A stretch of 64,000 nucleotides of DNA, from the NCBI GenBank assembly GCA_046756405.1, contig JBHHWH010000001.1, forward strand, positions 3,133 through 67,132, read 5' to 3'. Positions 2,805-60,852 of this stretch are shown here, piece after piece (within the stretch, counting starts at the first letter, position 1; every line of letters starts with the position of its first letter). A model generated the notes under the pieces. That model saw only the letters and a list, made by a program, of their open reading frames with translations, was not told the DNA's origin and searched no databases. Position numbers and translations under genes: made by a program. Origin of the DNA: Acidimicrobiia bacterium. GTDB taxonomy: Bacteria > Actinomycetota > Acidimicrobiia > Spongiisociales > ZC4RG35.

Positions 2805-3797
2805 GTGAAAGCAACGGTAGGAATCCTTGTCACGGCCCTGCTCGTGGCTGCGTGTGGAGGCAGCAGTGCTCCGGAGACAGGGGACCAGGCTGGCGGCGCC
2901 ATCGTCATCTCCGGCTCGTCGACTGTGGAGCCGGTGTCGGCTCGCGTCGCCGAAACCTATGGAAGCGAGCGCCCCGAACTCAGCATCTCCGTGGACGGTC
3001 CGGGCACTGGAGACGGCATGAAGGTGTTCTGCGCCGGCCAAGCCGACATAACGGGCGCTTCCCGGCCCATCAAAGAGCCCGAGATCGAGACCTGCAACCA
3101 GAACGGGGTGACGTTCATCGAGATCCCGGTGGCGATCGACGGCCTCAGCGTTCTCACCTCGCATGACAACGACCTGGTTGCATGCCTCGCCCCGGCCGAC
3201 CTCTACGCTCTCGTGGGCCCCGAGTCCATCGGATTCGGAACCTGGGGCGACGCCAACGACCTGGCTGCCGAGCTGGGTGCCGCCAACGCCCCCTATCCGG
3301 ACGTCCCGTTGGTGATCACTGGACCGGGTGAGGAGTCGGGCACTTACGATGCCTTCGTGGAGATGGTCCTAGAGGACATCGCCGAAGAACGCAGCCAGGA
3401 AGCGGCTACCCGTCCGGATTACACCGCCTCGGCCAACGACAACGTCATCATCGAGGGAATCTCAGGCTCCGACACTTCCCTCGGCTGGGTGGGCTACGCC
3501 TTCTACATTGCCAACCAGGACAGGGTGAAGGCCCTGGCCATCGCCGGTGGCGAGGGCTGCGTGGAGCCCACGCCGGAGACGATCGCCGATGGCAGCTACC
3601 CGCTCTCCCGGACCCTATACATCTACGTGAGCGTGGAGAAGGCACAGTCGAAGCCGGAAGTGGCCGACTTCGTCGACTTCTACCTCTCCGACGAGGGCCT
3701 GAAGGCGGTGGACGACGCCGGATACGTCCGCCTAGACGACTATGACCCCTCCCGCCAAGTTTGGGAGACCCGGACCCCCGGCCACCGCGAAGGATGA
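2805..3797 (+). CDS. pstS: Phosphate ABC transporter substrate-binding lipoprotein PstS.
   Basis: Lipobox LVAAC-GGSS, then ISGSSTVEP, GTGDG and the overall PstS fold signature. GTG start, with a GGGAG SD 10 nt upstream. Confidence 0.9.
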   Translation: MKATVGILVTALLVAACGGSSAPETGDQAGGAIVISGSSTVEPVSARVAETYGSERPELSISVDGPGTGDGMKVFCAGQADITGASRPIKEPEIETCNQNGVTFIEIPVAIDGLSVLTSHDNDLVACLAPADLYALVGPESIGFGTWGDANDLAAELGAANAPYPDVPLVITGPGEESGTYDAFVEMVLEDIAEERSQEAATRPDYTASANDNVIIEGISGSDTSLGWVGYAFYIANQDRVKALAIAGGEGCVEPTPETIADGSYPLSRTLYIYVSVEKAQSKPEVADFVDFYLSDEGLKAVDDAGYVRLDDYDPSRQVWETRTPGHREG

Positions 3798-53118: not shown

Positions 53119-54060
53119 ATGAACCCTGAACCCGGTTATGTTGTCGCCTCCGTGAATCCGTGGACACCCCTTGTGGCAGCCACCATCGGCTGGGCTTCGT
53201 CGGCGGTGCTCACCCGCACCCTCCTTTTGCGGGGAGTTGATGCCCTGACGGTGGTGCCGTTACGAATGGTGTTCGCCATAACTGCCCTGGGCGTCGTGAT
53301 CGCTCTCACCGGAAGGTTCGGCACCCGGGATCTACGAGCATGGAGGCGGGGGGCGATCCTCGGTGTGGTAGGCATGGCCATCCCGATGCTGCTGATGACC
53401 TTCGGCCTGGAGGACCTGCCGGTGAGTATCGGTGGGCTTCTCATCGCTCTGATCCCCTTGGCAACGGTGGGCGCAGCTCACTTCCTGGTCGACGGTGAGC
53501 GTTTTGTTGCCCGCTCCCTGCCGGGGTTGTTGCTGGCCCTGGTCGGCTCCGGCGTCCTGGTGGGCCTTGGGGGGAACACGATCGAAGGGGTAGGCAATCT
53601 GTGGAGGGGAGTTCTGCTCACCGTTGTCGGGGTGATCAGTGCGGGCTTCGGGGGTGCGCTGAGCCGCCGGTATGCCATGGAGATATCCAGCGACGAGTTG
53701 GTCCTGCCCCAGTTCGCTGTCGCCGCGGTGGTGCTCCTCACCCTGACCCCACTTTTCGGCATACAGGAGGTCTCGTCCATCGGCGCCGTCAACTGGCTGC
53801 TGGTGGCCGGTGTCGGTGTGGTGGGGACCACCCTCCCGTTCACCTCGCTCCTCATCGGAGCGGCCATAAATCCAGCGTCGCGCCTGGCCCTCATCGGGTA
53901 TGCGGTTCCGGTGGGGGCGGTGCTTTTGGCGGTGATCTTCCTCGGCGAGTCGCTCACCATCGAGGTGGTGGTGGGAGCAGTGCTGATAATCGGCGGGGTG
54001 GTACTGGCCGAGAAGTACGGCAAACACGTGCCAGCTCCAGGAGTGGCGACCGCCCGCTGA
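53119..54060 (+). CDS. DMT-superfamily (EamA-like) transporter.
   Basis: Ten predicted TM helices in two EamA-like halves. The start is uncertain: Met at 53119, or a GTG a few codons later. Confidence 0.75.
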   Translation: MNPEPGYVVASVNPWTPLVAATIGWASSAVLTRTLLLRGVDALTVVPLRMVFAITALGVVIALTGRFGTRDLRAWRRGAILGVVGMAIPMLLMTFGLEDLPVSIGGLLIALIPLATVGAAHFLVDGERFVARSLPGLLLALVGSGVLVGLGGNTIEGVGNLWRGVLLTVVGVISAGFGGALSRRYAMEISSDELVLPQFAVAAVVLLTLTPLFGIQEVSSIGAVNWLLVAGVGVVGTTLPFTSLLIGAAINPASRLALIGYAVPVGAVLLAVIFLGESLTIEVVVGAVLIIGGVVLAEKYGKHVPAPGVATAR

Positions 54061-54172
54061 GGCGGTCGGTGGACGGAACGCTCCCTATGGCAGTGCGGCG
54101 TAGAGTTCCCACTCGCCGGTCGGCGACAACTCCGCCCAACTCGGCTCCGACAAACTCTACCCTACGCCCTCC

Positions 54173-55831
<1,659 letters not shown>

Positions 55832-55899: not shown

Positions 55900-56109
55900 A
55901 TGCAACGAACAGGCAGGGTCATAACCGGATTCGCCCTGGTGGCGGCGGGCGTAGCCATGCTGGCGCTGCCCGGACCGGGCCTGGTGACCATCGCCGCCGG
56001 GCTGGCTCTGTTAGCTCGCGACCTCCGCTGGGCGGATCGCCTCCGCCAGCGGCTAGGAGCCGCCGAGTCCTACAGGCGGACGAGCCCTCAGGATCAGGAG
56101 GGCGGATAG
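55900..56109 (+). CDS. PGPGW-motif small transmembrane protein.
   Basis: 69 aa with a hairpin pair of TM helices around LALPGPGLVTIAAGLALLARDLRWADRL. Its 3' end overlaps the convergent sodN end by 16 nt. Confidence 0.5.
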   Translation: MQRTGRVITGFALVAAGVAMLALPGPGLVTIAAGLALLARDLRWADRLRQRLGAAESYRRTSPQDQEGG

Positions 56110-56501
56110 ACCCCCATCCCCTTGGCCTTTTCGGTCTGCCAGAAGATGTCGGCGATCTCGTCGATCAGAGCGATCAGCTTCTCCCCTTCGGCGGGGTCCA
56201 TCGACTTCTTGGCATCACCGGCCTGGTGGATGGCCCGCCAGAAGAGATCATCAAGCTGGGGGAACTGCTCCCGATGCTCAGCGGTGAAAAAGTCGGCCCA
56301 CAGCACCATCAGATGGTGTTTGACCTCCTCCGCACGCTGCTCTTTGATGAAGACGGCCCGGTCCCTGAAGACCGGATCGTCAGAGGCCTGGTATTTCTGG
56401 GCGACCTTGAGGACCGACATGGCCTCGATTTTCGCCTGGGCCGGGTCGTAGACCCCGCAGTAGAGGTCACAGTGGGCATGGGCAATCGTGACTTGGCGCA
56501 T
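56094..56501 (-). CDS. sodN: Nickel-containing superoxide dismutase precursor (NiSOD).
   Basis: Ni-hook motif HCDLYCGVYDP immediately after a 9-aa propeptide MRQVTIAHA, and a 4-helix-bundle length (135 aa). AGGAG SD 5 nt upstream of the ATG. Confidence 0.85.
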   Translation of the reverse strand: MRQVTIAHAHCDLYCGVYDPAQAKIEAMSVLKVAQKYQASDDPVFRDRAVFIKEQRAEEVKHHLMVLWADFFTAEHREQFPQLDDLFWRAIHQAGDAKKSMDPAEGEKLIALIDEIADIFWQTEKAKGMGVYPPS

Positions 56502-56553
56502 CTCTTCTCCTTCCCTTATGGCCGACGGCGGAGACCATACTCCGCCTCCGACC

Positions 56554-57498
56554 ATGACGATGAGACGCTTCCGGGTGGCCGAGCAATCGATGCTGCCCAC
56601 CCTCCGCCCCGGCGAGGAGATAGTCGCCACCGACTCCAGGCCGGCCCGCCCCGGCGACCTGGTGGTGTTTTCCCATCCTGACCGAAACCACTTCTGGATG
56701 GTGAAGCGGATGGTCTCCCCACGAGAGCCGCTGGAGCAGGGACTGGCCTGGGTGGTCTCGGATAATCCGGAGGTCACCCGGGCCGACTCCCGCACCTTGG
56801 GACCGGTACCGCTGGCATCGCTGATGCCGGTGGTCACCCGTCTCGATGAGGGAACCTTCGTCGAGGCCTGCCGGCTCCTGGAAGCCGAAGACCAGGCCCT
56901 GGCGAAGGCCCTGGAGGTGTATGGGATCCCTGAGTTCTGGCGGCGTCGGGAAGGGCTTCCAACCCTGGTGTGGCTGATCCTTGAACAGCAGGTCTCCCTG
57001 GCCTCGGGTCTGGCTACTTACCGGCGTCTCGGGGAGGCCCTCGGAGAGATGACCGCCGAAGCCCTCGCCGGCCTCGACGTGGACGGCCTCCGTGCCCTCG
57101 GTATCACCCGCCAGAAGGCCGCCTACCTGGTGGAACTGGCTGGAGGCGTGATTCGCGGAGAGGTAGATCCGGACTCATGGGGAAAGCTCTCCTATCCCGA
57201 AGCCCGGGAGCGTCTACTGGCCCTGCGCGGTGTCGGTCCCTGGACCGCCGACACCTACCTCCTCTCGGTGGCTGGCCATCCGGACGTCTTTCCCACCGGG
57301 GACCGGGCGCTCCAGGTGGGGACAGCCGAGGTTATGGGTCTGAGTTCGGTACCCGACGTTGAGGAGCTGGAGATCCTGTCCCAACCCTGGCGGCCGGTGC
57401 GGGCGGTCGCAGCGCGGATCATTTGGCATGCCTACCTGGCAGCACGGGGGAAGGCCGAACCCGCCGACCCTGTGCACGGGCCTTCGAAAACGGCGTAG
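56554..57498 (+). CDS. Fusion protein: SodX-type S26 signal-peptidase-like domain (NiSOD maturation protease) plus an AlkA/Mag-like HhH-GPD domain. Start is uncertain within 56518-56560.
   Basis: The N-terminal roughly 100 aa carry the S26 Ser/Lys dyad pattern (SMLPTLRPGE...VKRMV...SDNP...DSRTLGPVP). Residues about 120-336 match the AlkA C-terminal HhH-GPD fold (LRGVGPWTADTYLL...DVFPTGDRAL, ARIIWHAY). Divergent from sodN with only about 50 bp between the start codons. Confidence 0.7.
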   Translation: MTMRRFRVAEQSMLPTLRPGEEIVATDSRPARPGDLVVFSHPDRNHFWMVKRMVSPREPLEQGLAWVVSDNPEVTRADSRTLGPVPLASLMPVVTRLDEGTFVEACRLLEAEDQALAKALEVYGIPEFWRRREGLPTLVWLILEQQVSLASGLATYRRLGEALGEMTAEALAGLDVDGLRALGITRQKAAYLVELAGGVIRGEVDPDSWGKLSYPEARERLLALRGVGPWTADTYLLSVAGHPDVFPTGDRALQVGTAEVMGLSSVPDVEELEILSQPWRPVRAVAARIIWHAYLAARGKAEPADPVHGPSKTA

Positions 57499-57511
57499 AG
57501 TCGGTTATGTG

Positions 57512-57925
57512 ATGACCGAGTTCATCGTCACGATGGAGAACCGCCCCGGGCGTCTGGCCAGCTTGGCTGAAGCCCTGGCGGCCTTCGGGGTCAACATCGA
57601 AGCGCTGGCGGCCTACGCCAACGACGGCACCGGAACGGTGCGCCTCATCGTGAGCGACGCCCCCACCACCCGTCACGTCCTCGACGACGCCGGCCTCCAC
57701 TTCGAGGAGAACACGGTCCTCACCGCCCACCTCCCCCACCGGCCCGGCGAGCTGGCCCGACTAACCCGCTCCCTGGCCGACGCCGGGGTGAATATTGAGG
57801 CCCTGTACATCCTCAAATCGAATCACGACGGAGTGGAGCTGGCCATCTCCCTGGACCAGCCTCCTTCGGCGGTCCCCGAGCTCGAAGTGACGGGGGGAGT
57901 GCTCTCCCTGCCCAACTCCGGGTAG
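57512..57925 (+). CDS. ACT-domain-containing protein (tandem ACT repeats).
   Basis: 137 aa with two segments of the form ...ENRPGRLASLAEALAAFGVNIEAL... and ...LPHRPGELARLTRSLADAGVNIEAL.... Confidence 0.6.
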   Translation: MTEFIVTMENRPGRLASLAEALAAFGVNIEALAAYANDGTGTVRLIVSDAPTTRHVLDDAGLHFEENTVLTAHLPHRPGELARLTRSLADAGVNIEALYILKSNHDGVELAISLDQPPSAVPELEVTGGVLSLPNSG

Positions 57926-57952
57926 CCGGGGTCCGTTCGTAAACTGCCGTCG

Positions 57953-59047
57953 ATGCGCATCGCCATTGCCAGCGTGGTTGCGCTCGGGCTCCTCGTGTCG
58001 GCGTGTTCCCCAGCAGCGACGGAGACCTCCGTAGCAGCCACCGGGACCCAGGCGCCGACCACCACTACCACCAGCACCACTGTCCCGCCGACCACCACCT
58101 CAGCGCCGGCCACCTCCACGACCACCACTCTCCCGCCGGGCGACGTCTCCCCTATCAACGGCCTCGAGGTGGAAGACGAGGCGCTGATGAATCGTCGGGT
58201 GCTGGCGGTGAAGATCGACAACCACCCCAGGGCCAACCCCCAGTCGGGCATCGACCAGGCGGACATGGTCATCGAGCTGATGGTGGAGGGGATCACCCGC
58301 TTCATCTCAGTGTGGCTCCAAAGTGATGCCGAGTATCTGGGTCCGATCCGCTCGGCGCGTCCCACCGATCCGACCCTGCTCCGGGCCTTCAACGAGCCGA
58401 CCTTCGCCATTTCGGGTGCCCAACAGTGGGTCCAGATCTTGGTCCGAAGCAAAGATGTTCGCCTCATAGGCGAGGTCAGGCCAGCCATGTTCCGGATCTC
58501 GTCGCGGAAGGCGCCGCACAACCTCTACGGGGACACCAACCTGATCCGCGAATACGCCGACCAACTCGGCTACCCAGACGAACCGCCGACGGAACCGATC
58601 TGGAGCTTCGGGCCGGTGCCCGAGGACGCAGCCGTGGCCACCTCGGTGCGGATCGACTTCCTGGGCCAGATCGTCCGCTGGACCTGGGACGAGGAAAGCG
58701 GCCTCTACCTGAGGACCGCCTACAACCGCGAGTCGACGTACCGCAATGAGGATGGCACCGAGGGGCGTGTCGGAGTGCCGGTGCTGGTAGCCCTCTACGT
58801 GGAGCAGTACACCGCCTACCCGCCCGCGGGCCAGAGCGGAACCCCCCTTCCCGCCTCCCGAACCCTCGGCTCGGGCAAGGCCTTCGTCTTCGCCAATGGC
58901 AAGGTCGTCGAAGGGACCTGGACGCGGGGGTCGGAGGACGAGTGGTTCCGCCTCACCTACCCCAACGGCGAAGAACTGTCCGTCCCGCCGGGGAAGGTGT
59001 GGGTCTCCCTGGTCCCTGTCACGCGAGGCCTCACCTACTCCGACTAA
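57953..59047 (+). CDS. DUF3048-domain lipoprotein.
   Basis: Lipobox LLVSAC, a Thr/Pro-rich linker, then DUF3048 N/C-domain hallmarks (RVLAVKIDNHP...ADMVIELMVEGGITRF...). Confidence 0.7.
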   Translation: MRIAIASVVALGLLVSACSPAATETSVAATGTQAPTTTTTSTTVPPTTTSAPATSTTTTLPPGDVSPINGLEVEDEALMNRRVLAVKIDNHPRANPQSGIDQADMVIELMVEGITRFISVWLQSDAEYLGPIRSARPTDPTLLRAFNEPTFAISGAQQWVQILVRSKDVRLIGEVRPAMFRISSRKAPHNLYGDTNLIREYADQLGYPDEPPTEPIWSFGPVPEDAAVATSVRIDFLGQIVRWTWDEESGLYLRTAYNRESTYRNEDGTEGRVGVPVLVALYVEQYTAYPPAGQSGTPLPASRTLGSGKAFVFANGKVVEGTWTRGSEDEWFRLTYPNGEELSVPPGKVWVSLVPVTRGLTYSD

Positions 59048-59049
59048 CT

Positions 59050-59098
59050 TTTCTGTGCGGGTTTACGGCTGGTTTTGGCCTGAAGATCCGCACAGAAA
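59050..59098. repeat. Inverted repeat / hairpin IR-A (TTTCTGTGCGG-27 nt-CCGCACAGAAA) in the leader of SBP gene A.
   Basis: 11-bp perfect stem with a 27-nt loop. It starts 3 nt after the DUF3048 stop and ends 17 nt before the SBP-A ATG. It is nearly identical to IR-B. Confidence 0.6.
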
Positions 59099-59115
59099 GG
59101 TCTTGAGAGGGCGAG

Positions 59116-60852
59116 ATGCGACTGAGCGTGGCGGGGTTGGCACTGATAGTGGCGTGCACCGCGGTGCCGGCGCCGGAGACCACCATCTCCACCGAGGCGG
59201 CATCGACGACGGTGGCGCCGACGACCACCACCACGATCCGGCCGGTGCCCGACCCGGAGTTCACCATGCGGGTCTCGGTGGGTTGCATGCCTTTGTTCGA
59301 CTTGATCATCGCCGAGCTGTCGATTGTGGAGTGTCCCGAATGGGGTATGCCCCTCCAGCCCTCCCTCTACCGGCTGGTCCCTCCCACCGCCACCTTGGTC
59401 CCCCTCCTCGCCGCCGACCCGACCCCTCCCCTGGGCCAGGCCACCGACGACGGCTGGGAGATCGTGGTGACCTTGCGCCAGGGGGTCACCTGGAGCGACG
59501 GCACCGTCGTGGATGCCGAAGACGTCGTCTACACGTATCAAGTCTTGAGTGACCAAGCCCCCTGGCGTTTCTCTTACACCGTGGAGGCGATTGACGACTT
59601 CACCGTCCGCTATGTCTGGGAAGAGAGGCCTACCACAAACATCTGGCAGTTCGAGGCCGCCCTGGCCCCCATCTTCTCCGCCGACTTCTGGGGAGCCCAG
59701 CAGGAACGACCCGAAGGTGGTTTCGGCTTCACCCCCGACCTCGAGCCCACCGCGATCCCCACCACCGGCCCCTACCGTCTGGCCGAGGTAGACGACGACT
59801 TCGAAGGCTGGATCCTGGAGGCAGTCCCCGCCTGGTGGGAGGCAGGCTCGTCGTTCACCGTGTGGCGTAACGGGTCGGTCCGCTATCGCAATCCCAACCT
59901 CGGCCTCGACGAGACCTACGGAGAGCCGGAAGGCGATGTGATAGCCGAGTGGACCGTGGGTCCCTACGCCTCCCGGGTGGAGTACTCGGTGTTTGGTGGC
60001 GTAAACGCAGAGATAGATGCTTTCCGAGAAGGTGACATCGACCTGATGCTCAGGAGCGTGGACTTCCCCTCGGGCATCCCCGACCTGGGGGCAGCCGCGG
60101 GGCTGGTGAGAAGCGTTCTCGGTGTCGACGTAGTGGTCTTCGAGTTCGATGCTCCTCCCTTCGACAATGTCGCCGTCCGCCGGGCCGCCGCCTGCGCCTT
60201 CGACCCCCAAGTCCTGGTCGGGAAGGTCCTTCCCGGCAAGGTCCTTCCCCCCACCGGATGGGGTGTCGGCCTCGGACCCTGGTGGGAGGACGCGTCCCTC
60301 GACTGCGAAGGAGTGGGGACGGGGAACATCCTCGAGGGGGTTCCCGTGGCAGGAGTTCTGGTCCGGCCCCCGGAGTACTCCCCGATACCGGCTGCCGTGG
60401 CCGCGGCGGTCTACGACTGGCTGGCTGGCCTGGGTGCTGAGCCCATCGACGGTTTCATCGAAATGGGCAGCATCTTCGATGATGACAGCGTGGCCGAGTT
60501 CACCGTCTTCGGGCTCGGCATCGACCCCGTACGTTTGATCACCAACCCTCGCGTCCTCATCGACACGGACATCGGCTGGCAACCTCCTGAAGCGGTCGCC
60601 CTCCTCGACCAGATTCGCAGCGCCTACGACCTGGAGACCGAACAGGCCGCCTACCGGGAGCTCCAGCAACTCGTCGCCGACCAGATCCCAGCGGTTCCTG
60701 TGCTCCGGCAGACAATGGTGGAGGCCTTCAACACCCACACCATCCTCCCGCCCTTCGTCACACCCACCGAAGACGGCTACACCACACCCCTCATCGGCGG
60801 TCTCCGGAACTGGGAGTCATGGGTCGTCCCCGCCACCCGTCAAGCCCCCTGA
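59116..60852 (+). CDS. ABC transporter substrate-binding lipoprotein, family 5 (peptide/nickel/opine type), paralogue A.
   Basis: Lipobox LIVACTA. SBP_bac_5 hallmarks include VTWSDGTVVDAEDVVYTY, GPYRL and large bilobal size. No permease or ATPase genes are adjacent. Confidence 0.8.
   Translation: MRLSVAGLALIVACTAVPAPETTISTEAASTTVAPTTTTTIRPVPDPEFTMRVSVGCMPLFDLIIAELSIVECPEWGMPLQPSLYRLVPPTATLVPLLAADPTPPLGQATDDGWEIVVTLRQGVTWSDGTVVDAEDVVYTYQVLSDQAPWRFSYTVEAIDDFTVRYVWEERPTTNIWQFEAALAPIFSADFWGAQQERPEGGFGFTPDLEPTAIPTTGPYRLAEVDDDFEGWILEAVPAWWEAGSSFTVWRNGSVRYRNPNLGLDETYGEPEGDVIAEWTVGPYASRVEYSVFGGVNAEIDAFREGDIDLMLRSVDFPSGIPDLGAAAGLVRSVLGVDVVVFEFDAPPFDNVAVRRAAACAFDPQVLVGKVLPGKVLPPTGWGVGLGPWWEDASLDCEGVGTGNILEGVPVAGVLVRPPEYSPIPAAVAAAVYDWLAGLGAEPIDGFIEMGSIFDDDSVAEFTVFGLGIDPVRLITNPRVLIDTDIGWQPPEAVALLDQIRSAYDLETEQAAYRELQQLVADQIPAVPVLRQTMVEAFNTHTILPPFVTPTEDGYTTPLIGGLRNWESWVVPATRQAP

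Follow-up and report, generated by a model that had tools for sequence, protein, structure and literature searches.

A gene fusion between a SodX-like protease and a short HhH-GPD DNA glycosylase beside the nickel superoxide dismutase gene of uncultured Acidimicrobiia

Nickel superoxide dismutase (Ni-SOD) is made as a preprotein, which its cognate peptidase, SodX, activates by cleavage (PMC8346466, PMC3919588). This report concerns a gene from an Acidimicrobiia bacterium, found in a stretch of 64,000 nucleotides (referred to throughout as the window; positions 3,133 to 67,132 of contig JBHHWH010000001.1 in assembly GCA_046756405.1), in which a SodX-like protease domain runs in frame into a DNA glycosylase domain of the HhH-GPD type; the gene, here called sodX::mag or simply the fusion gene, is read divergently from sodN, the gene for Ni-SOD itself. 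In several respects its N-terminal half resembles SodX as represented by SCO5255 of Streptomyces coelicolor, by SodX of Prochlorococcus and by the family TIGR02754: there is an S26 core of some 90–100 residues that has a Ser/Lys dyad but lacks a membrane anchor, the gene lies divergently beside sodN, and the propeptide of the substrate ends in a small-X-small sequence (Ala-His-Ala, or AHA) before His1 of the mature enzyme (PMC3919588, PMC8346466). The difference lies at the C-terminus, where the tail of the stand-alone protease (...R-Y-W-P...) is replaced here by a glycosylase of 210 residues.

For this C-terminal half the appropriate comparison is with the short glycosylases of the Mag/AlkA2 subfamily (2H56, 2YG8/2YG9, 3S6I, 4HSB/4B21), with which it shares a two-lobed, all-helical fold of roughly 200–230 residues, the lack of an AlkA N-domain, and an HhH hairpin and catalytic Asp that can be aligned (sequence matches having E-values from 7.7e-16 to 9e-10); unlike them it carries an N-terminal protease domain, and it is 22–26% identical to the solved structures. 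E. coli AlkA belongs to the same HhH-GPD superfamily, and Asp250 corresponds to its catalytic Asp238, but the match to its structure (1DIZ) is weak (E 9e-5), the two proteins are not orthologues, and instead of the TBP-like N-domain of AlkA, which is absent, there is an unrelated, beta-barrel protease. The type I signal peptidases LepB, SpsB and SipA, for their part, have in common with the N-terminal half their catalytic-core fold and boxes B, D and E (SM.P, VKR and SDN...DSR), whereas the present protein has no transmembrane segment and no beta-sheet domain II, and is predicted to be cytoplasmic with a dedicated single substrate. No description of an architecture combining S26/SodX with HhH-GPD was found in the literature searched, and what is reported here is a new way of combining domains of known enzyme types, belonging to one clade of uncultured Acidimicrobiia.

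The fusion gene, defined by its open reading frame, by homology and by profile matches to both of its halves, occupies 56554..57498 on the forward strand and encodes 314 residues. The frame itself is open from a GTG at 56488 and ends at 57498; since all homologues begin M(x)MRRF, the true start is either the ATG at 56554 or that at 56560, the latter giving the 312-residue product already present at NCBI (P0001, ACE5F5_00280, a 100% identical 'hypothetical protein' from an Acidimicrobiia metagenome-assembled genome, or MAG). A series of motifs that had been listed for this one frame in a first-pass annotation, made from the DNA letters and their open reading frames, can all be found as stated: they are, in order, SMLPTL (with Ser12), VKRMV (with Lys51), SDNP, DSRTLGPVP, LRGVGPWTADTYLL and DVFPTGDRAL. 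Residues 1–96 (56554..56841, forward strand) make up the SodX-like S26 protease domain, assigned from PF10502, TIGR02754 and the fold predicted by AlphaFold (AF2); residues 97 to about 305 (56842..57468, forward strand) make up the short Mag/AlkA2-type HhH-GPD glycosylase domain, assigned from PF00730 together with PDB and fold matches; and residues ~306–314 (57469..57495, forward strand) form a C-terminal tail (...EPADPVHGPSKTA) that is predicted to be disordered, with a predicted local distance difference test score (pLDDT) of <50 at residues 310–314. Over the full length the AlphaFold model has a pLDDT of 93.1 and a predicted template-modelling score (pTM) of 0.88. The tail follows a semi-conserved pattern, RG(R/K)xEPxDPxxxHxxxxxA, in which the final residue is Ala in 71/120 homologues; as its -3 position is not small, it does not look like a mimic of a signal-peptidase product.

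The occurrence of the fusion elsewhere was surveyed in two ways. A protein search against 5.8 billion sequences gave 1,248 matches at E <= 1e-5, and the best 120 of these, which were the ones analysed, are all about 300–320 residues long and 54–74% identical, most of them carrying both PF10502 and PF00730. A genome scan using one genome per GTDB species, from which the best 80 loci were taken (so that species counts are lower bounds), yielded full-length matches, at 47–58% identity, in at least 19 species, all of them MAGs and mostly labelled as Acidimicrobiia; two of the 19 are labelled as Acidobacteria and were assumed to be mislabelled. Together with four further loci from exact-protein look-ups, these species provide 23 loci, in all of which the reading frame is intact (299–325 residues), and no stop at the junction between the domains was present in any relative, whether among the 23 loci or the best 120 matches. 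The fusion is thus conserved at 47–74% identity across many Acidimicrobiia MAGs, and it is invariably divergent from sodN. Four short entries returned when the N-terminal domain alone was used as query (P0121–P0124) are not separate genes; each is a copy of the fusion that has been cut short or frameshifted, some of them lying at contig ends.

Possible further examples, flagged because tblastn matches appeared to extend upstream of residue 97, were considered at L024 and L030 (both Nitriliruptorales), L075 (Knoellia) and L078 (Gemmatimonas); all four proved to be stand-alone glycosylases with no upstream S26 motif, so that the fusion was seen only in MAGs of Acidimicrobiia type. Both halves of the fusion are under purifying selection: the ratio of nonsynonymous to synonymous substitution rates (dN/dS, method of Nei and Gojobori) is 0.11–0.26 in those pairs that are least saturated, whichever domain is taken, with medians of 0.31 for the N-terminal and 0.27 for the C-terminal domain, values that are merely indicative given that dS is near saturation in many pairs.

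The junction between the domains falls at residues ~94–98, that is, at nucleotides ~56833–56850, some 40 nucleotides further upstream than the 56880–56900 at which it had been placed in the first-pass annotation. Its sequence, P-V-V-x-R-L-D-x-x-T-F, is conserved among homologues, and how it came about can be judged by aligning the stand-alone counterparts of each half. Glycosylases that stand alone, in further classes of actinobacteria and in other phyla, are 38–50% identical to the C-terminal half and align from residue ~97 of the fusion (the start of an example from Auraticoccus, MPLDAEAF, being aligned with R96-L-D-E-G-T-F), while the C-terminus of stand-alone SodX, ...RVVFRYWPP..., is to be compared with ...PVVTRLDEG... 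in the fusion. From these two alignments it follows that the last beta-strand of SodX is joined directly to residue 2 or 3 of the glycosylase, with no linker, which is the pattern expected of the loss of a stop codon, or of a short deletion, between neighbouring genes. No site for self-cleavage at the junction was apparent, there being no conserved Ala-X-Ala within residues 84–100.

The first-pass annotation had taken the N-terminal ~100 residues to be S26/SodX, and this was upheld by profile searches. PF10502 (Peptidase_S26) matches residues 4–54 with 29.7 bits, against a gathering score of 22.9, and among NCBIfam models the best match is TIGR02754 (sod_Ni_protease; E 6e-11, residues 7–94 on model positions 2–88 of 90), although with a score below the trusted cutoff. 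The AlphaFold model of the domain (pLDDT 92.9) fits the catalytic cores of SipA from S. pyogenes, LepB from E. coli and SpsB from S. aureus with TMq values of 0.75–0.80, and more weakly those of LexA, UmuD and lambda cI (TMq 0.57–0.65). A sequence search of the PDB with the same domain gave just insignificant signal-peptidase matches (E ~0.8–1), and no solved structure of a SodX turned up in either the sequence or the fold searches of the PDB.

As regards catalytic residues, Ser12 of box B (SM.P; codon 56587–56589) is present in 103/103 of those homologues that cover the position. The remaining 17 of the 120 have had their start miscalled at Met13, the M of SM.P, so that the catalytic Ser is missing from the entry; they include P0047, P0053, P0054, P0063, P0068 and 12 others, and account for most of the entries without a Peptidase_S26 match. 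Lys51 (VKR; codon 56704–56706) and, in box E, Asp78 and Ser79 are kept in 120/120. A catalytic Ser as early as residue 12 leaves space neither for a membrane anchor nor for the upstream segment, with its self-cleavage site, that is found in S24 proteins such as LexA. Residues 1–96 are best described as having the predicted fold of a minimal S26 signal peptidase, for which SodX is the best-matching family.

A further link to SodX comes from gene order. A divergent sodN adjoins the fusion gene in 23/23 fusion loci, with a gap of ~45–63 bp in 21 of them; of the two outliers, the first is separated by 83 bp, and the second, at 206 bp, spans an assembly gap. In this last locus (L015) a run of N at ~1600–1700 is flanked by a duplicate of the first ~45 nucleotides of the fusion gene, which is an artefact of scaffolding and accounts for the apparent distance. 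The common backbone of the fusion loci is EamA-metG-PGPGW-sodN|fusion-ACT-DUF3048. When residues 1–98 alone were searched against 1.84 billion representative proteins, the nearest relatives that are not fusions were stand-alone proteins of 100–113 residues, 45–57% identical, whose best NCBIfam match is again TIGR02754 (28–73 bits) and to some of which NCBI or JGI has given the name 'nickel-type superoxide dismutase maturation protease'. Three stand-alone sodX genes (100–119 residues), which lie on long contigs of further MAGs from the Acidimicrobiia, occupy the identical position, EamA-metG-PGPGW-sodN|sodX, and these loci share with the fusion loci the nickel hook HCDLYCGVYDP, the AHA|H cleavage site and an intergenic CCGACCATACTCC motif, while their downstream genes differ. 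Given this identical synteny in a sister lineage, the N-terminal domain is the positional orthologue of SodX, and its orthology with sodX can be regarded as shown. The question raised at the outset as to whether related sodX genes are stand-alone thus has a divided answer: they are in this sister lineage, but at the 23 loci described above they are fused.

In the C-terminal half, PF00730 (HhH-GPD) matches residues 139–280 with 46.4 bits (gathering score 26.2), and the PDB entries matched by sequence are headed by Mag of B. halodurans (2h56, 7.7e-16), followed by 4hsb, 2yg8, 3s6i and 1diz; the alignment to 2H56 covers its residues 24–212 of 233, with the catalytic Asp aligned. Comparison of the predicted fold with Mag2, Mag1, DrAlkA2 and BhMag gives TMt values of 0.75–0.88 over 195–211 columns. 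The HhH hairpin, G226-V-G228, begins at 57229 and the catalytic Asp250 is encoded at 57301–57303; G226, G228 and D250 are all kept in 120/120 homologues, which settles in the affirmative the question of whether the catalytic Asp had been retained. By fold and by length, therefore, this half is a complete short Mag/AlkA2-type HhH-GPD glycosylase, much as had been proposed. It is not AlkA in the strict sense: the AlkA equivalog NF007641 scores 26.3 bits against a cutoff of 229, and the AlkA N-domain is indeed lacking, as was noted at the time. That lack is not, however, peculiar to this protein, since the short Mag/AlkA2 subfamily is naturally without the N-domain, and its absence here does not represent a truncation.

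The putative substrate of the protease is encoded at 56094..56501 on the reverse strand, where sodN specifies a Ni-SOD precursor of 135 residues that lies above both curated cutoffs (PF09055, Sod_Ni, E 3.2e-39, 134.8 bits against 25; TIGR02753, 131.9 bits against 90) and is 76–86% identical to the sodN products adjoining every related fusion or stand-alone sodX gene. Its propeptide, read from the sequence as MRQVTIAHA (9 codons; 56475..56501, reverse strand), places an Ala-X-Ala site (AHA) just before His1 of the mature protein; the AHA|HCD junction is kept in 26/26 related loci, those of the stand-alone-sodX lineage included, in which the propeptide is of 12 residues as against 9 here. The nickel hook, HCDLYCGVYDP (56442..56474, reverse strand), follows directly and contains His1, Cys2 and Cys6, so that the prediction of a sodN with this hook after a 9-residue propeptide was correct on each point. 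Position 5 of the hook is Tyr, which departs from the Pro of the canonical HCxxPCGxY, and the form HCDL(Y/F)CGVYDP, with either Tyr or Phe at this position, was seen in 27/27 sodN genes (that of the window and those of 26 related loci from the fusion and stand-alone-sodX lineages). The hooks of Streptomyces and of cyanobacteria have Pro here; the survey covered these Acidimicrobiia only.

In weighing what all this amounts to, the simplest objection to consider is that the window derives from a metagenome-assembled genome, in which adjacent sodX and glycosylase genes might have been merged by a stop codon or frameshift lost in sequencing or assembly, as the first-pass annotation had itself allowed. 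With a reading frame that is continuous in the best 120 database matches and also in 23 loci, each assembled independently and drawn from different studies, with the junction sequence itself conserved, and with the shorter entries turning out to be truncated fusions, such an artefact is untenable, and we regard the chance of it as negligible. Only slightly less remote is the idea that the N-terminal domain is something other than SodX, for instance an S24 module that cleaves itself in the manner of LexA or UmuD, or else a generic signal peptidase with some other substrate. It is true that PF00717 (S24) gives a weak match, and that some homologues carry a precomputed match to the same family, but the score of 20.2 bits falls below the cutoff of 23.3; moreover the position of Ser12 leaves no N-terminal segment in which such a module could cleave itself, a transmembrane anchor is lacking, the fold is nearer to S26 than to S24, SodX is the best family, and the domain stands beside sodN as the positional orthologue of sodX. 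The earlier claim of a true in-frame fusion of SodX with a glycosylase therefore stands, on the combined strength of its conservation, the orthology with stand-alone sodX, the S26 fold and the invariant catalytic residues.

As to what the fusion does, our conclusion is that the reading frame represents a genuine, fixed gene fusion and that it probably encodes a bifunctional cytoplasmic protein whose two co-expressed activities are independent of one another. On this account the Ser12/Lys51 dyad of the N-terminal domain would cut the nine-residue leader from SodN after Ala-His-Ala, a classical small-X-small site, so exposing His1, the free amino group and side chain of which would bind nickel together with Cys2 and Cys6. 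The C-terminal domain, meanwhile, would flip damaged purines (probably alkylated or otherwise modified) out of the DNA and cleave their glycosidic bond by means of Asp250, acting in base-excision repair as a monofunctional glycosylase of Mag type. The fusion most likely arose once, in a single lineage of the Acidimicrobiia, from SodX and a formerly stand-alone glycosylase, and the most economical view would be that it merely locks in the co-expression of independent activities, protease and glycosylase both presumably being low-abundance proteins with a weak Shine-Dalgarno sequence or none, encoded beside a strongly translated sodN. That each half is enzymatically active, which substrates the glycosylase accepts and that the two functions are independent are what we infer from these comparisons, and a functional pairing of Ni-SOD maturation with base-excision repair is likewise a proposal.

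There are several points that tell against this conclusion and should be borne in mind. The TIGR02754 score of 42.6 bits is less than the trusted cutoff of 63.25, and most of the clearly stand-alone syntenic relatives likewise fall below it; every member of the family comes from an uncultured MAG; a catalytic Asp that has been kept is no guarantee of glycosylase activity, and Mag2 of S. pombe, which is the top fold match, binds abasic DNA and is not known to excise bases. A pTM of 0.88 suggests that the packing between the domains is fixed, in which case the halves could be functionally non-independent. Lastly, a pre-fusion state, in which sodX would precede a glycosylase gene still separate from it, or in which ACT-DUF3048 would have a stand-alone glycosylase gene on its upstream side, was not found when sodN, metG and DUF3048 were compared by tblastn with 60 stand-alone glycosylase loci, and so the route by which the fusion originated is one that we infer.

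Some of these same points could be taken to mean that one of the halves is enzymatically dead, the glycosylase being a non-catalytic binder of DNA or of abasic sites in the manner of Mag2, or the S26 domain being a structural appendage that has replaced the AlkA N-domain; the fold match to Mag2 and the low SodX score are both in keeping with this. Against it may be set the invariance in full-length members of Ser12, Lys51, Asp78, Ser79, Asp250 and the HhH glycines, the similarly low dN/dS of the two halves, and the constant presence alongside of a sodN that retains a propeptide which must be removed, and on balance we think it unlikely. Rather different is the suggestion that the two functions are coupled, the glycosylase domain tethering or regulating the protease so that the fusion is a regulatory device: SodX might, for example, be held on the nucleoid for co-translational processing of SodN, or the binding of damaged DNA might gate the maturation of Ni-SOD. 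Fusions often mark functional links, and this one persists in homologues as distant as 47% identity, always adjoining sodN, with no linker and with an inter-domain arrangement that AF2 predicts with confidence to be fixed. Nevertheless, the sister lineage has a stand-alone SodX of 100 residues at the same locus, implying that SodN can mature independently of any DNA-binding domain, and the full catalytic set of the glycosylase is invariant, which would be unnecessary for a mere tether. We consider such coupling unlikely, and that applies just as much to its more specific form, in which a DNA-bound glycosylase would position or allosterically gate SodX and hence tie the activation of Ni-SOD either to the nucleoid or to lesion sensing.

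If, as seems likeliest, the halves of the fusion protein act independently, then it provides a tidy example of domain fusion and no more, with two ordinary enzymes on one chain. Even so, it hints that these Acidimicrobiia of soil and sediment may co-regulate base-excision repair with their defence against superoxide, or may even couple the two, and were the coupling real it would amount to a post-translational link between the detection of DNA damage and the maturation of an antioxidant enzyme. There are also practical consequences. The labels given to members of the family are inconsistent ('DNA-3-methyladenine glycosylase II', 'S26 family signal peptidase' and 'hypothetical protein' all being in use), and where the start has been miscalled at Met13, as in about one entry in seven, the deletion of the catalytic Ser causes the entry to read as a plain glycosylase and the genome to be scored as 'sodN without sodX'; surveys for that combination would overlook the protease in this clade. 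To our knowledge no in-vitro enzymology of SodX has been published, and a naturally fused, conserved SodX might be easier to express, while its orthologues offer a set from which the minimal requirements of a cytoplasmic S26 peptidase could be worked out.

The starts of sodN and the fusion gene are separated by a divergent intergenic region that, read from the sequence, is 52 bp long (56502..56553), in agreement with the ~50 bp given originally. Within it, at 56533..56543 on the reverse strand, lies a strictly conserved motif, GACCATAC(T/C)C, which was detected solely by comparing loci and is present in 22/22 of the fusion loci that were aligned, as well as between sodN and sodX in 3/3 stand-alone-sodX loci. 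Its reverse complement contains TATGGT, ~35 nucleotides upstream of the ATG of sodN, and to judge from its sequence and position this probably serves sodN as the -10 element of its promoter; the -35 region would then fall within the first codons of the fusion gene. A generic scan of 56300–57700 for sigma-70 promoters and terminators gave no match. While sodN is preceded by a strong Shine-Dalgarno sequence (AAGGAG), none lies within reach of the ATG of the fusion gene, as would suit a catalytic protein of low abundance, and no promoter of its own was identified for that gene within the region.

Downstream, the stop codon of the fusion gene is followed after 10–13 nucleotides by the start of a gene for an ACT-domain protein (57509..57925, forward strand; Pfam ACT, 9e-14), which is also found 3' of the fusion in L001–L004. 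The short gap, with DUF3048 coming next, suggests an operon, and the ACT-domain gene is probably in one operon with the fusion. Taken together, the ACT-domain pair protein and a putative DUF3048 lipoprotein span 57509–59047 and are followed at 59116–60852 by a family-5 solute-binding protein (SBP_bac_5), all on the forward strand. The ACT and DUF3048 genes are conserved beside the fusion, but the solute-binding protein was not seen in L001–L004, so that although its family includes nickel- and peptide-binding proteins, a link to nickel is unsupported.

On the other side of sodN, at 55900-56109 on the forward strand, is a gene for a small membrane protein of the PGPGW family (69 residues; PF09656, 1.5e-15), which converges on sodN and overlaps its stop by 16 nucleotides at the 3' end; it is called at the same position in L001, L003 and L004 (though not in L002), as well as in the stand-alone-sodX loci L085–L087. 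Three long open reading frames on the reverse strand, of 247–564 residues, at 53954–55129, at 56094–56837 (in its part beyond 56501) and at 59044–60738, were dismissed as spurious high-GC frames overlapping metG, the fusion gene and the solute-binding protein gene. Finally, the DUF3048 and SBP_bac_5 proteins both have linkers rich in Thr and Pro after their signal sequences.

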